From Candidatus Lokiarchaeum ossiferum (GTDB taxonomy: Archaea; Asgardarchaeota; Lokiarchaeia; Sigyniarchaeales; Promethearchaeaceae): a stretch of DNA of 32,000 nucleotides. Numbering within the stretch: the first letter of the stretch is position 1; each line of letters opens with the position of its first letter. The notes under the pieces are model-generated. The model had not been told where the DNA came from and searched no databases. It worked only from the letters and a program-made list of their open reading frames with translations. Both the position numbers and the translations under genes were made by a program. The stretch covers positions 360,001 through 392,000 of the forward strand of contig CP104013.1 in NCBI GenBank assembly GCA_025839675.1, in the 5' to 3' direction. This document shows positions 13,764-18,878 of this stretch, in pieces.

Positions 13764-15170
13764 CTATTCTTGAGGTTCAGTATGAATAAGACAATGATCT
13801 AAATTATTAAAAGCATAATGAAGATCATATTCAAATTTTTCTGCTATATTGTGAGCCATCTCTACGGTTAAAGAAGGTTTAAGAGTAATGGAAACGATGA
13901 GAGTGAATTCATTTTTATCTTCAATGATTTTTAAGTCATGAAATCCATGGATCATAGAATTTTGAAGAATTAAAGCGTTCAAAAAGGATCTAACATCATC
14001 TCGCTCAATTTGTTCAAATGAATGGGAATGACTTTTTTCCTTTCGTTCAGCAGGTTCTATATGCGATATAACTTGGATTTCTCTCCCTTCGGAAAATTTC
14101 TGAAGTCTTTTCAAAATAGATTCTTCAACATTGGTTGCCAACGAATGAGCTTTGACTAAATTTAAATCTGGGGCTAATTTAATGTGATATTGAACGAGAA
14201 GGACATTTTTAAACCGATCGATTATAATATTATGAATATTATATTCTTTTTCATCCTGTTTGACATGTTCCCGGATTTCATCGAAATAATTGATGCTCTT
14301 TGATGGATCATTAATATTAAATTGAATAAATATATTGCAATCAAACCCTGAACAAGCCTCTGTTATTGTTGATCGGATTTGATTTGAAATCGCATTTCCG
14401 TGTAATACCGAATATTGCTCATCTAAACATATTGAAACTGTGGCATCCAAATAGTTACCTGCAGTTTTCAATGCTAATGAATCAATATGATTTACACCAT
14501 CAATTTCATTGATTTTAATCATAATTTCTTCAACTAAATCATCATTAATCGCATTTGCATCGATTAATTCATTGAAGCTTTGACGTAAAACTTTGATTCC
14601 GTCTACAATGGAGATAATAGAGAAAATTCCTGCGATTATTGGATCTAATAGAGCTAATCCAAAAGAAGAAATTATCAAACCAATAATAACAGATATATTG
14701 CGATAAAAATCTCCTCTAAAATTCAATCCTTGAGCAATTATTGCTTGATTATTTGTTTTTTTCCCGATAGATACAACTTTTTGGGATACAAAAAAAACTA
14801 TGACTACAACAACTCCCAAAGAAATAGCAGCAACAAGACTGTTATCTGGTCGATATTCATCAATATTTATTAAAGTTGAAATTGCCTTTACTAAGATAAA
14901 GCAATAAAGACCTATAATCATAAATGACTGAATAAATCCAGCCACAGAATTTACTTTATAATGACCAAACATATGTTCATTATCTGCTGGTTTTTTACTC
15001 TCTTTAAGAGCTATAAAAGTGATTAAAACTGCAGCAAAATCCATAATTGAATCGGATAATTCTGCAAGGAACGAAATTGAGTTAGTAAAAAAACTTACTG
15101 TGATTTTAATTAGAAAAACGGATAATACTAACGATATTGATAATAATGAGACTTGTTTATCTTCTTCCAC
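13764..15170 (-). CDS. cation diffusion facilitator (CDF) family metal exporter with three tandem C-terminal cytoplasmic domains
   Basis: The six-TM N-domain carries 'LAELSDSIMD' (TM2, DxxxD), 'HMFGHYK' and 'NFRGDFYRN' (TM5, NxxxD). Three CTD-like repeats each end in a CDF-like strand: '..CNIFIQFN', '..VISHIEPAE' and '..CLIHTEPQE'. The GTG start is preceded by 'AGGTGttttatt'. Confidence 0.85.
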   Translation of the reverse strand: MEEDKQVSLLSISLVLSVFLIKITVSFFTNSISFLAELSDSIMDFAAVLITFIALKESKKPADNEHMFGHYKVNSVAGFIQSFMIIGLYCFILVKAISTLINIDEYRPDNSLVAAISLGVVVVIVFFVSQKVVSIGKKTNNQAIIAQGLNFRGDFYRNISVIIGLIISSFGLALLDPIIAGIFSIISIVDGIKVLRQSFNELIDANAINDDLVEEIMIKINEIDGVNHIDSLALKTAGNYLDATVSICLDEQYSVLHGNAISNQIRSTITEACSGFDCNIFIQFNINDPSKSINYFDEIREHVKQDEKEYNIHNIIIDRFKNVLLVQYHIKLAPDLNLVKAHSLATNVEESILKRLQKFSEGREIQVISHIEPAERKEKSHSHSFEQIERDDVRSFLNALILQNSMIHGFHDLKIIEDKNEFTLIVSITLKPSLTVEMAHNIAEKFEYDLHYAFNNLDHCLIHTEPQE

Positions 15171-15185
15171 AATAAAACACCTTTA

Positions 15186-15479
15186 TTAGCAATCACAACA
15201 ACTATCTTTGCCACTTTTACGGGCTTTGACATCCCATAAACAGCCACAACCTTGCCGTTCTTCCATAATAATTGCCTGAGTTGGACAATTACGTTTGCAA
15301 GCACTACATTCAGTGCAAAGATCTACGCGTAAAATCTCATATTTCCCTAAATCATTACGTTCAGGTAATCCAAAAGGACAAACATCATCACACATTCCAC
15401 AACCGATACATTTGTTAAGATCGATGTAAATTTTCAATCCACTTTTGGGATTTTCAGATTTAATACTTGTTATTTCCAT
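15186..15479 (-). CDS. HgcB-like 2x[4Fe-4S] ferredoxin with Cys-rich C-terminal tail
   Basis: It has two CX2CX2CX3CP motifs, 'CIGCGMCDDVCP' and 'CTECSACKRNCP'. These are followed by 'QGCGC' and the terminal 'SCCDC' (vicinal Cys94/Cys95 at nt 15195-15200). Length is 97 aa. The ATG is preceded by 'AGGTaatttca', 16 nt after the upstream stop. Confidence 0.75.
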   Translation of the reverse strand: MEITSIKSENPKSGLKIYIDLNKCIGCGMCDDVCPFGLPERNDLGKYEILRVDLCTECSACKRNCPTQAIIMEERQGCGCLWDVKARKSGKDSCCDC

Positions 15480-15495
15480 TGAAATTACCTATGTT

Positions 15496-17304: not shown

Positions 17305-18336
17305 TTATTCTTCCGATTCCCAAAAATGCTTTTTCCTTAAATATTTTCCAAGGAAAACTAAACCAAGCATTATAGGAACTTCCCAAAATAGACCCATTGT
17401 TGTACCTAAAGCAGCAATAGATCCAACCCCATACATTGCAACGGCTGTTGCTATTGCAATTTCAAAATGGCTGGAAGAACCGATGATAACTGATATAATG
17501 GCTTGACGGTATTTTAACTTGAATAATTTTGTCACCAGCAAATTGTATCCCACAACGATTATAAAACCTAATAATAGCGGAATGGAAACTTGCCAAAGGA
17601 GTTCCGGATTTTCAAGCAATACCGTTCCATTTAATGAAAATAGGACCACCAATGTTATGAGTAGTGCGAAAATCGATATTTTCCCTATGATAGGGCGATA
17701 AGTATTGTGGAACCAATCTTCTCCCTTAAATTTAATCAATAGTTTCTTAGATACCACACCAAGTATTAAAGGTAAACCTATAAAAACTAACACAGAAATG
17801 ATCAAAAGCCCTCTATCAATTTGTATATTTTGAATACCAGTTAAAAGTGCTACTACGGGACCATATAGAAATATGATGGTTACTGTATTCAAGCTTGTAT
17901 TTACAACATTTTGTTCTTGATTACCTTCTGCCATCGATCCCCAAACTAAGACCATAGCAGTACATGGGCTTGAACTCAACAATATTACGGCCACAATCAA
18001 TTGAGGTTGGTCTCTTACAAAAATCCACGCAAGTAAAGCGCCCACCAATGGTGCAACGATCCAATTTGATAAAAGGGTCAAAAAAATGGGTTTTGGATTG
18101 TTCTTGAGTTTTTTTAACTCGGAAACTTGTAAGTTTAGCATCGCTGGATACATCATTAAAAAAAGACATACTCCAATAGGGATGGAAATTCCCCTTATAG
18201 CCCATGAATTTAATGTTTCTCCAATTCCCGGAATAGTTACTGAAAGTAAAATCCCTACGAGAATACATAAAGCAACCCAGATTGCAAGAAATTTTTCAAA
18301 AAAGCTAATTTTTTTTCCTTCTGCTTGTTCTACCAT
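17305..18336 (-). CDS. acr3: ACR3-family arsenite efflux permease
   Basis: It is a roughly 10-TM protein with the ACR3 signature around the essential Cys ('LLSSSPCTAMVLVWG'), plus 'NVVNTSLNT' and 'IGSSSHFEIAIATAV'. The ORF-track start at 18345 is GTG. An ATG three codons downstream (18336) is used here. Confidence 0.9.
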   Translation of the reverse strand: MVEQAEGKKISFFEKFLAIWVALCILVGILLSVTIPGIGETLNSWAIRGISIPIGVCLFLMMYPAMLNLQVSELKKLKNNPKPIFLTLLSNWIVAPLVGALLAWIFVRDQPQLIVAVILLSSSPCTAMVLVWGSMAEGNQEQNVVNTSLNTVTIIFLYGPVVALLTGIQNIQIDRGLLIISVLVFIGLPLILGVVSKKLLIKFKGEDWFHNTYRPIIGKISIFALLITLVVLFSLNGTVLLENPELLWQVSIPLLLGFIIVVGYNLLVTKLFKLKYRQAIISVIIGSSSHFEIAIATAVAMYGVGSIAALGTTMGLFWEVPIMLGLVFLGKYLRKKHFWESEE

Positions 18337-18345
18337 ACGTGTCAC

Positions 18346-18434
18346 TTTCTAATTGTATAATTATTGAAAAAGAATGTCAAATAAAAAATTTTTTATCTGT
18401 ATTTGTAAATATGAATATGTAAAGATTTTTTTTT
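18346..18434. promoter_or_regulatory. divergent acr3 / arsR intergenic control region (candidate promoters and ArsR operator)
   Basis: This 89-bp AT-rich spacer lies between divergent starts. It contains the imperfect palindrome 'tatttgtaaata' (18401-18412). 'tgtaaa' repeats 14 bp apart (18405-18410 and 18419-18424). No operator consensus can be asserted from sequence alone. Confidence 0.35.
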
Positions 18435-18878
18435 ATGTATTACCTATCTAATTTGATTATGGTTTCTGAATCAAGGGAAGAAAAAATCGTTGAAACGTTA
18501 GCTAGTTGTGAATCCTTCGGTGATCCTCAACAATATTACAATAATTTAGTGGAATTAAAAAAGCAATTTTATCAAAATCCTCGAAATATTCAGCTCATTT
18601 CACTGTTAGAATCCTTTGGAAATAAAGAACGATTTTTGATTTTAGATATGCTTAAATCCAAAGATCGCTGCGTGTGCGAATTGGAAGCGATTTTACAAAA
18701 ATCCCAACCGGCAATATCGCACCATTTAAGAATATTGGAATCAAGTAACTTGATTCAAGCGCGGAAAGTCGGTAAATTTAGCCATTACTCACTGGTTCAT
18801 TCCCAATTTGAAAAATTCCAAAATTCATGGCGTGAATGGGTGGCAGATATCTCAAATTGGATGGGAGCTTTCGATTAA
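18435..18878 (+). CDS. arsR: ArsR/SmtB-family metalloregulator with CVC metalloid-binding motif
   Basis: The winged-HTH core is 'ERFLILDMLKSKDRCVCELEAILQKSQPAISHHLRILESSNLIQARKVGKFSHYSL'. 'CVCEL' (Cys79/Cys81, nt 18669-18677) corresponds to the ELCVCDL As(III) site of R773 ArsR. The wHTH is preceded by about 60 extra aa. An alternative ATG lies at 18459. Confidence 0.9.
   Translation: MYYLSNLIMVSESREEKIVETLASCESFGDPQQYYNNLVELKKQFYQNPRNIQLISLLESFGNKERFLILDMLKSKDRCVCELEAILQKSQPAISHHLRILESSNLIQARKVGKFSHYSLVHSQFEKFQNSWREWVADISNWMGAFD

Follow-up and report, generated by a model that had tools for sequence, protein, structure and literature searches.

What does a relative of the mercury-methylation protein HgcA do when it is joined to an S-adenosylmethionine (SAM) methyltransferase and placed in an operon of arsenic-resistance genes? 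This question is raised by a 32,000-nt stretch of the genome of Candidatus Lokiarchaeum ossiferum (the window, to whose positions all coordinates refer), in which an arsR gene faces four closely packed genes encoding an ACR3-family permease, a 587-aa methyltransferase::HgcA-like fusion protein, an HgcB-like ferredoxin and a CDF cation-efflux transporter (Table 1). An initial annotation had proposed that these genes form a corrinoid-dependent system for metal(loid) methylation and export. In this work, profile, structural and gene-neighborhood analyses identify the module, with high confidence, as a divergent Asgard branch of the system composed of CpaM and the HgcAB-like paralogue. Our reading of the whole locus, held tentatively and with a little less than even confidence, is that this paralogue system lies inside an ArsR-controlled arsenite-resistance operon and would methylate a metal(loid).

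The identity of the C-terminal half of the fusion is supported at several levels. This half is CdhD/HgcA-like at residues 283-579, with the Pfam CdhD family (PF03599) matching residues 283-375 and the NCBIfam HgcA model (NF040863) matching residues 284-579 with 163.5 bits, a score below the cut-off of 275 and to be compared with the 435 bits of a canonical control (locus L050). Likewise, the HgcAB_like model NF043039 gave 174.8 bits, under its cut-off of 285, and was matched at model positions 14-263 only. In a sequence search of the PDB, which holds no experimental HgcA structure, the corrinoid domain matched only the large subunits of the corrinoid iron-sulfur protein (CFeSP; 4c1n and 2h9a, E 3.7e-6). 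An AlphaFold2 model of the fusion, obtained from 63 homologues (predicted local distance difference test, pLDDT, 83.9; predicted template modelling score 0.82), displays a methyltransferase, a Rossmann-like corrinoid domain and five long transmembrane helices (residues 427-459, 463-492, 496-519, 529-547 and 552-586), and its best Foldseek match is the integrative HgcAB model 9a0b (E 8.8e-12, 325 columns, 30% identity), followed by class-I SAM methyltransferases. Further, 37 residues are common to the fusion family and canonical HgcA, 23 of them in the corrinoid domain; those shared in the transmembrane domain (R430, P488, R494, F496, K499, G500, G504, G545 and T550) indicate that the homology covers the whole HgcA length. 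Cys338 aligns with the cap cysteine (Cys93 of Pseudodesulfovibrio mercurii ND132) in all 215 sequences compared. The HgcA-like call of the initial annotation therefore stands as regards the corrinoid and transmembrane domains, but not as an assignment to canonical HgcA, given the sub-threshold scores, the cap motif and the paralogue clade described below.

The cap motif separates the two kinds of protein. Within the fusion family it is invariably NVWCAARG, departing at its last two positions from N[VI]WC[AS][AGS]GK, the pattern required by the high-stringency HgcA criterion of Hg-MATE (PMC10087281). In a set of ~240 sequences from a representative search and from genome loci, the ~150 stand-alone HgcA proteins sampled all end in GK, except for one SK, whereas methyltransferase-fused and ferredoxin-fused relatives all lack the terminal Lys, showing NVWCAARG, NVWCAAGG, NVWCAACG or similar motifs. 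A neighbor-joining tree, built without a CFeSP outgroup, placed 49 of the 52 non-GK sequences, plus one GK sequence, on one side of a single split; bootstrap support for the exact canonical/paralogue split was weak (23/100), and the tree is used here only alongside the partition by motif and architecture. The placement agrees with Lin et al. (2023), who had put Loki- and Thorarchaeota sequences in a 'fused-HgcAB' clade and, after dropping the first 327 alignment positions as poorly aligned, read the Asgard sequences as HgcA-HgcB fusions (PMC10083202). The Asgard sequences found here are instead methyltransferase::HgcA-like proteins with a separate ferredoxin gene, and the N-terminal domain would have been hidden by that trimming.

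Two additional cysteines distinguish the Loki-type corrinoid domain. Of the Loki-type sequences, 32/32 have Cys275 and 28/32 have Cys328, two residues almost never seen in canonical HgcA, where the equivalent positions hold Met, Asp, Asn or Ser and Val, respectively; further Loki-type switches relative to canonical HgcA are T→S331, T→N347, E→Q349, E→H437, N→S542 and T→S544. The idea that Cys275 and Cys328 track the ars context was rejected, as they are kept across the whole Loki-type clade whatever the neighboring genes. Both residues would be suited to the coordination of a thiophilic metalloid. Taken together, the 587-aa protein is best described, from its motifs and profile matches, as a predicted member of a divergent Asgard branch of the CpaM and HgcAB-like paralogue system and not as a canonical HgcA.

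The N-terminal half matches Pfam Methyltransf_25/31/11 and contains a class-I SAM-methyltransferase at residues ~26-180, with motif I residues G49, C50, G51 and G53 and the acidic D70 invariant in the family, so that the SAM-binding motifs are intact. The covalent union of such a methyltransferase with the HgcA-like half, as initially annotated, was thus corroborated. The NCBIfam CpaM model (NF043040) gave 137.7 bits, below its cut-off of 180, in two stretches split by an insertion of ~38 aa that is limited to Lokiarchaeum and its nearest relatives. In the family alignment this insertion (aa 100-137) is confined to the window protein and P0004, with a part of it in P0059; it is of low complexity, located between motif II and the next strand, with pLDDT <50 at residues 109-137.

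The fusion is widespread. At least 120 full-length homologues at ~50% identity were found in genomes labelled Lokiarchaeota/Promethearchaeota, Hod-, Hermod-, Heimdall- and Odin-, including Prometheoarchaeum syntrophicum, and hundreds of sequences, from Asgard archaea, Chloroflexota and elsewhere, contain the methyltransferase/HgcA-like fusion. Reference genomes and metagenomes were scanned for fusion states, with subsequent domain checks. Loki-type genomes, Thorarchaeota, Chloroflexota/Anaerolineae and Poribacteria combine the methyltransferase::HgcA-like protein with a ferredoxin, with CpaM scores of 264.9 bits in Chloroflexota L038 and 229.6 bits in Poribacteria L025 (cut-off 180); Odinarchaeote L044 encodes a separate CpaM (250.8 bits) beside a fused HgcA::ferredoxin (HgcAB_like, 366.6 bits; cut-off 285), and Desulfobacteraceae L045 has a triple fusion (CpaM 258.7 bits, HgcAB_like 361.1 bits). 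These recurring fusion states of three modules link SAM loading to the corrinoid and constitute evidence of the Rosetta-stone type that the SAM methyltransferase is a predicted partner acting on, or with, the corrinoid protein. It has been shown that SAM methylates the cobalamin of HgcAB (PMC11588087), and the earlier statement that the methyl donor of this protein is unresolved is consequently outdated.

The ferredoxin matches Pfam Fer4 families and, with 55.1 bits, the NCBIfam HgcB model (NF040864; cut-off 99). It holds two CxxCxxCxxxCP motifs, GCGC at the GVGC position of canonical HgcB and an SCCDC tail, and was found downstream of the fusion in 26/27 Loki-type loci, in agreement with its earlier description as an HgcB-like protein that follows the fusion and retains the Cys tail. 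The GCGC[LIV]W segment and a pair of cysteines at the C-terminus are conserved in ferredoxins of the Loki and Thor types; these features correspond to Cys73, Cys94 and Cys95 of HgcB, which mutagenesis has implicated in Hg methylation (work cited in PMC11588087). The Chloroflexota/Anaerolineae ferredoxins (L026-L042) have neither the GxGC cysteine nor the C-terminal Cys tail, and their first cluster motif is degenerate (C-x-G-x-W-x-C-x-x-x-C-P), which suggests a different electron or substrate path in the bacterial branch.

In many Loki-type loci the ferredoxin is followed by a small protein of 89-145 aa with an invariant VDIYVPLxxCxCxW segment (L001:10025-10294, L004:10023-10412, L008:3260-3580, L010:10139-10576, L013:10054-10344), in some copies of which the N-terminus is rich in CC. 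Pfam gave no hit for it, and its profile retrieved nothing from the PDB sequences at E<=1; it may be a metalloid-binding accessory. The CDF gene takes its place in Lokiarchaeum. The transporter encoded there matched Pfam Cation_efflux (107.7 bits), TIGR01297 (190 bits) and ZT_dimer in three stretches, confirming three tandem cytoplasmic (C-terminal) domains instead of one. The claim that it belongs to the system did not hold: among the loci examined, a CDF gene follows the ferredoxin only in the Lokiarchaeum relatives L085 and L086 (84-88% identical), and it is a genus-level addition outside the conserved system. In these two relatives, other gene callers start the CDF 21-30 codons earlier, overlapping the end of the ferredoxin.

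The arsenic genes around the fusion were assessed from the raw sequence onwards. All five open reading frames of the initial annotation were recovered at the same coordinates, and its spacers (45, 16 and 15 nt) were reproduced, as were the divergent gap of 89 bp and the two T6 runs after the acr3 stop about which it had cautioned; the Shine-Dalgarno-like AGGT and AGGTG motifs end 7 nt ahead of the ferredoxin and CDF starts, respectively. Two palindromic stretches, AT-rich and of low information, lie in the arsR/acr3 gap (18344-18377 and 18378-18399). The permease scored 286.4 bits over residues 13-331 on TIGR00832, above the cut-off of 282.8 and in accordance with the ACR3 call, and 149.5 bits on Pfam SBF, and its translation contains SSPCTAMV and HFEIAIA, which we take to be the essential Cys and Glu motifs of ACR3. 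The divergently encoded repressor matched Pfam HTH_5 (54.8 bits) and HTH_metalloreg (NF033788, 73 bits, above the cut-off of 55), and displays the C-V-C site of helix alpha3 in the segment DRCVCELEAIL; the Loki-type regulators beside the fusion all share (D/E)RCVCELEAIL, and the Thor-type ones share ACVCEF.

The order arsR / acr3-fusion-ferredoxin recurs in homologous loci in which the fusion is only ~50% identical, which excludes a chance juxtaposition. In Heimdallarchaeote L001 and Promethearchaeote L004, a divergent arsR is followed by DUF166-acr3-(arsM)-fusion-ferredoxin, and in L004 a bona fide ArsM (347 bits, cut-off 263) is encoded between acr3 and the fusion. We counted ArsR and ACR3 genes within 5 kb in distinct loci for which 1.5 kb or more upstream was available, a sample of phylogenetically non-independent loci obtained with crude open reading frame calls and queries from the window: ArsR was found in 14/22 and ACR3 in 12/22 Loki-type loci, ArsR-like genes in 6/8 and ACR3 in 2/8 Thor-type and other archaeal loci, and ArsR in 11/63 and ACR3 in 5/63 canonical hgcA loci. 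In the Thorarchaeota loci inspected, the ArsR-like gene is co-directional and located 3-6 nt upstream of the fusion. At the junctions compared, the spacers from acr3 or arsM to the fusion always measure 40-74 nt, most with a GGAG/AGGTG motif, and the T-runs at the upstream junction of the fusion are absent in L001, L004, L010 and L089. The retention of ArsR and ACR3 across ~50% protein divergence bears out the expectation, put forward with the first annotation, that the ars context would be conserved among homologues, and the arsenic link suggested by gene context can be regarded as strong. A link between ars genes and canonical hgcAB had been published earlier (McDaniel 2020, PMC7438021; Gionfriddo et al., bioRxiv 10.1101/2022.10.17.512643): in strain ND132, hgcAB responds to arsenic via ArsR, and the hgcAB-linked ArsR2 responds to S-adenosylhomocysteine (SAH) as well (bioRxiv 10.1101/2022.10.17.512643).

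Other proteins are encoded at some of these loci. In several ars operons of Asgard archaea, a gene for a DUF166 protein of ~247 aa separates arsR from acr3 (L001:6155-6898, L004:5227-5973, L007:10320-11051); the protein has six invariant cysteines, including a C-x-x-C...C cluster (VCHECRAPRFGHTCDKE), and NCBIfam recognizes a selenoprotein branch of its family (DfsP). Because Asgard archaea have been reported to have acr3 and arsM without arsC (PMC10060404), the DUF166 protein could act as a redox partner or as an alternative arsenate reductase. Furthermore, in the ars-free Loki-type subgroup L006, L011, L016 and L018, the gene directly upstream of the fusion, and co-directional with it, encodes a MarR-type regulator marked by a conserved 'CC-G(V/I)T' segment and by a CC at the C-terminus. 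MarR is also present at the canonical hgcA loci L049, L052, L054, L055, L057, L063, L064 and L071, and may represent a second regulator family tied to hgc-type genes.

The mechanism that we propose would begin with the presence of a metalloid, upon which ArsR would derepress the operon and ACR3 would export As(III). The ferredoxin would reduce the cobalt to Co(I), and the fused methyltransferase would move the methyl group of SAM to it, yielding a Cys-on CH3-Co(III); the methyl group would then pass to a soft metal(loid), bound to thiols and offered by the Cys tail of the ferredoxin, a transfer in which the clade-specific Cys275 and Cys328 may also take part. The most probable substrate would be As(III), or else Sb(III), and not Hg(II). 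The parts of this proposal differ in strength: a role related to arsenic or antimony is slightly favored, the actual methylation of As or Sb by the system, suggested by protein sequence and gene context, is possible but rather doubtful, and the broader notion that the Asgard module is a corrinoid-dependent arsenite/antimonite methyltransferase independent of ArsM, and thereby a second enzymatic route to methylated metalloids, with metalloid handling and not mercury methylation being ancestral for the whole HgcA family, is a shade more doubtful still.

Several observations weigh against this proposal. CxC sites in helix alpha3 are also known in ArsR-family sensors of Cd, Pb and Zn, and several regulators adjoining the fusion have variable extra N-terminal cysteines resembling those of CadC; of the earlier claim about the repressor, the C-V-C site and the divergent orientation stand, but the site does not prove As/Sb specificity. 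The cap segment is poorly defined in the AlphaFold2 model, which lacks the cofactor, residues 330-346 having no assigned secondary structure and residues 338-342 showing pLDDT <50. Moreover, the ArsM of L004 would make a second As(III) methylase redundant unless its function differs. The module is also widespread without ars genes: bacterial CpaM fusions have ArsR in 0/21 and ACR3 in 0/21 loci, and ~40% of Loki-type loci have no ars genes, at least four of them with a MarR-type regulator instead, indicating that the core module does not need them. These facts agree with a corrinoid chemistry acting on a substrate other than a metal(loid), for instance the methylation of a thiol or small organic compound or the reductive dehalogenation of a halomethane, in which case the ars neighbors would reflect shared stress regulation or an ArsR-type control responsive to SAM/SAH, and not a common substrate; this is a possibility of some standing, although an unlikely one. 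It gains from the SAH and arsenic response of ArsR2 in ND132 (bioRxiv 10.1101/2022.10.17.512643), from the reported dechlorination of CCl4 by HgcAB (bioRxiv 10.64898/2026.04.26.720869), and from the tail-less Chloroflexota ferredoxins, which imply that the delivery of a thiol-bound metal is not universal in the clade. However, the Loki and Thor ferredoxins keep the metal-handling cysteines and the Loki-type corrinoid domain adds two more, a dedicated SAM-methyltransferase module favors methyl transfer over dehalogenation only, and the recurrence of ACR3 directly upstream of the fusion, across a gap of 27-75 nt, in many loci at ~50% divergence, with ArsM inserted in L004, is hard to explain without an arsenic-related role.

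Could arsR and acr3 be an ordinary resistance unit, and the fusion, ferredoxin and CDF genes a separate transcription unit kept beside it by inherited synteny? Oligo-T tracts terminate archaeal transcription, and the two T6 runs after the acr3 stop could be terminators in Lokiarchaeum; other genes intervene between acr3 and the fusion in L005 and L013, and many of the loci with ars context come from related Asgard genomes, so that the counts are not independent. Nevertheless, it is the short spacers and Shine-Dalgarno-like motifs that are conserved at the junction, and not the T-runs; the adjacency is retained, amid differing flanking genes, at ~50% identity between genomes labelled Heimdall, Hermod, Hod and Loki; ACR3 adjacency is ~seven-fold above that of canonical hgcA loci; and the Thor clade has its own ArsR-like gene immediately upstream of the fusion. 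We consider this explanation improbable. Even less probable, in our assessment, is that the locus encodes a genuine mercury methylase, that is, a functional HgcAB that carries its own SAM loader and produces methylmercury. The homology to HgcA and HgcB over their whole length would accommodate it, as would the conservation of the catalytic cysteine, of the HgcB Cys73 equivalent and of the C-terminal Cys pair, the use of SAM by HgcAB (PMC11588087), and the inclusion of Asgardarchaeota among putative methylators in one published list (PMC12484752). Conversely, the protein falls well short of the HgcA cut-off, its cap fails the high-stringency motif (PMC10087281), no mer genes are found nearby, where ars genes stand instead, and it clusters with the fused-HgcAB clade (PMC10083202), all tested members of which fail to methylate Hg (PMC4646819, PMC10087281). 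We thus retain, tentatively, metal(loid) methylation by the paralogue system within the arsenite-resistance operon as the preferred reading.

Table 1. Features of the arsR-acr3-fusion-ferredoxin-CDF locus, in window coordinates.
Feature	Coordinates	Strand	Basis or remarks
ArsR/SmtB-family repressor, 147 aa	18435..18878	+	Pfam HTH_5, NCBIfam HTH_metalloreg
Divergent arsR/acr3 intergenic region, 89 bp, presumed promoters and operator (putative)	18346..18434	.	Sequence
ACR3-family arsenite efflux permease, 346 aa	17305..18345	-	TIGR00832, Pfam SBF
acr3-to-fusion spacer, 45 nt	17260..17304	-	Two T6 runs; GGAG 12 nt before ATG
Methyltransferase::HgcA-like fusion, 587 aa	15496-17259	-	
Fusion N-terminal class-I SAM methyltransferase module, CpaM-like, aa 1-250	16510..17259	-	Pfam/NCBIfam/Foldseek
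Lokiarchaeum-specific insertion of ~38 aa within the methyltransferase module, aa 100-137	16849..16962	-	
Linker and HgcA-like corrinoid-binding domain, aa 255-420, including Cys275 and Cys328	16000..16497	-	
Cap-helix motif N335-V-W-C338-A-A-R-G342	16234..16257	-	
HgcA-like transmembrane domain, aa 425-587, five long helices	15499..15987	-	AlphaFold2
HgcB-like 2x[4Fe-4S] ferredoxin, 97 aa, GCGCLW and C-terminal SCCDC	15186..15479	-	
CDF cation-efflux transporter, 468 aa, three ZT_dimer stretches	13764..15170	-	

As for the surroundings, an 881-aa hybrid sensor kinase (dCache-HAMP-PAS-HisKA-HATPase-receiver; 11039-13684, minus strand) is encoded directly downstream of the CDF gene, a synteny kept in both Lokiarchaeum relatives. 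Beyond arsR lie genes for a pirin (18986-19846, plus strand), which is also found near arsR in L086, and for a small cupin (20620-20961, plus strand). In the MarR-type Loki loci, a 108-aa cupin is repeatedly encoded downstream of the fusion; it shares with the window cupin a weak and generic similarity (32% over 71 aa), and the resemblance is probably a coincidence. When CDF, the small CxC protein, DUF166, YdjM, unk195 and MarR were sought elsewhere in the window, only this weak generic cupin similarity was obtained. A 116-aa open reading frame (19942-20292, minus strand) with two CxxC pairs may encode a zinc-ribbon protein. Scans of the window (1-32000) returned no tRNA genes and no Rfam family at the gathering threshold.

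Prior records already cover HgcA and its family, the HgcAB-like paralogue, CpaM, and the association of hgcAB with arsenic. The initial annotation was not aware of any characterization of the architecture. Our searches on CpaM and on hgcA with a methyltransferase domain yielded no paper describing CpaM or the fusion among the searchable literature, but the pairing is already implicit in the NCBIfam models CpaM (NF043040) and HgcAB_like (NF043039). What is new is the explicit methyltransferase::HgcA-like architecture and the extent of its occurrence, the cap-helix signature setting the paralogue clade apart, the near-systematic embedding in ars operons of Asgard archaea, and a corrected reading of such sequences in hgcA surveys. 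A SAM methyltransferase fused to, or adjoining, HgcA-like proteins provides independent genomic support for SAM feeding the cobalt of HgcAB. The proposal also gives a concrete candidate role to the 'non-methylating' HgcAB-like paralogues, connects the long-puzzling association of hgcAB with arsenic to a clade in which it is the rule and not the exception, and would make this operon part of the arsenic handling of the closest prokaryotic relatives of eukaryotes. Since fusion-type proteins match hgcA hidden Markov models and have been treated as 'fused HgcAB' (PMC10083202), the non-GK cap and the N-terminal methyltransferase domain, which mark a different enzyme, are relevant to metagenomic estimates of methylmercury potential. 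Both L. ossiferum and P. syntrophicum, which are available as cultures or enrichments, carry the gene, making experiments possible.

Among known systems, canonical HgcA/HgcB, exemplified by P. mercurii ND132, shares with the locus the corrinoid domain with its NVWC cap cysteine, a homologous five-helix transmembrane domain, an adjoining two-cluster ferredoxin with a GxGC cysteine and a C-terminal Cys pair, the use of SAM to supply the methyl group (PMC11588087), and ArsR-type regulators, sometimes with acr3 or arsM nearby. It differs in its ~29% identity to the fusion and in lacking an N-terminal SAM-methyltransferase domain and the extra Cys275 and Cys328; its cap ends in GK and not in RG, its ferredoxin has GVGC where that of the window has GCGC, and ars adjacency is much commoner for the Asgard fusion. 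The large subunit of CFeSP (AcsC/CdhE) of the Wood-Ljungdahl pathway has a homologous corrinoid-binding domain, but the match extends over only ~95 residues and the fusion has neither the N-terminal [4Fe-4S] domain nor the TIM-barrel partner of CFeSP; the fusion is predicted to be membrane-anchored and Cys-on with SAM as its presumed donor, whereas the donor of CFeSP is methyl-H4folate.

ArsM has in common with the methyltransferase module the class-I SAM-methyltransferase fold, the context of an ArsR-regulated ars operon and a putative metalloid substrate. However, the module reaches only 24-27 bits on ArsM-related models (curated cut-offs of 510-575 bits), and the 25 best hits listed for the fusion do not include the plain ArsM model NF008823 (cut-off 263 bits); the As(III)-binding Cys set of ArsM has no counterpart in the module, whose single invariant cysteine is Cys50 of motif I, the window system has an attached corrinoid protein and ferredoxin, and L004 encodes a true ArsM in addition to the fusion. 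Other systems that methylate cobalamin with SAM are the reactivation domain of MetH and the class B radical-SAM methylases, in which SAM methylates Co(I) with a low-potential electron donor; these rely on the MetH activation fold or a radical-SAM domain, whereas the presumed loader of the window is an ordinary Rossmann-fold class-I methyltransferase. The system formed by the HgcAB-like fusion protein (NF043039; Pyrococcus furiosus Q8U2U9 type) and CpaM belongs to the same paralogue clade, as its non-GK cap and clustering in the tree indicate, and contains the same SAM-methyltransferase, HgcA-like and ferredoxin modules, the tested NF043039-type members not methylating Hg. The type arrangement has CpaM as a protein of its own and HgcA::HgcB as a fusion, whereas in the window it is the methyltransferase that is fused to the HgcA-like protein, the ferredoxin being encoded by its own gene; with both models the score of the window protein is below the cut-off, and the ars operon context is seen only in the Asgard branches.

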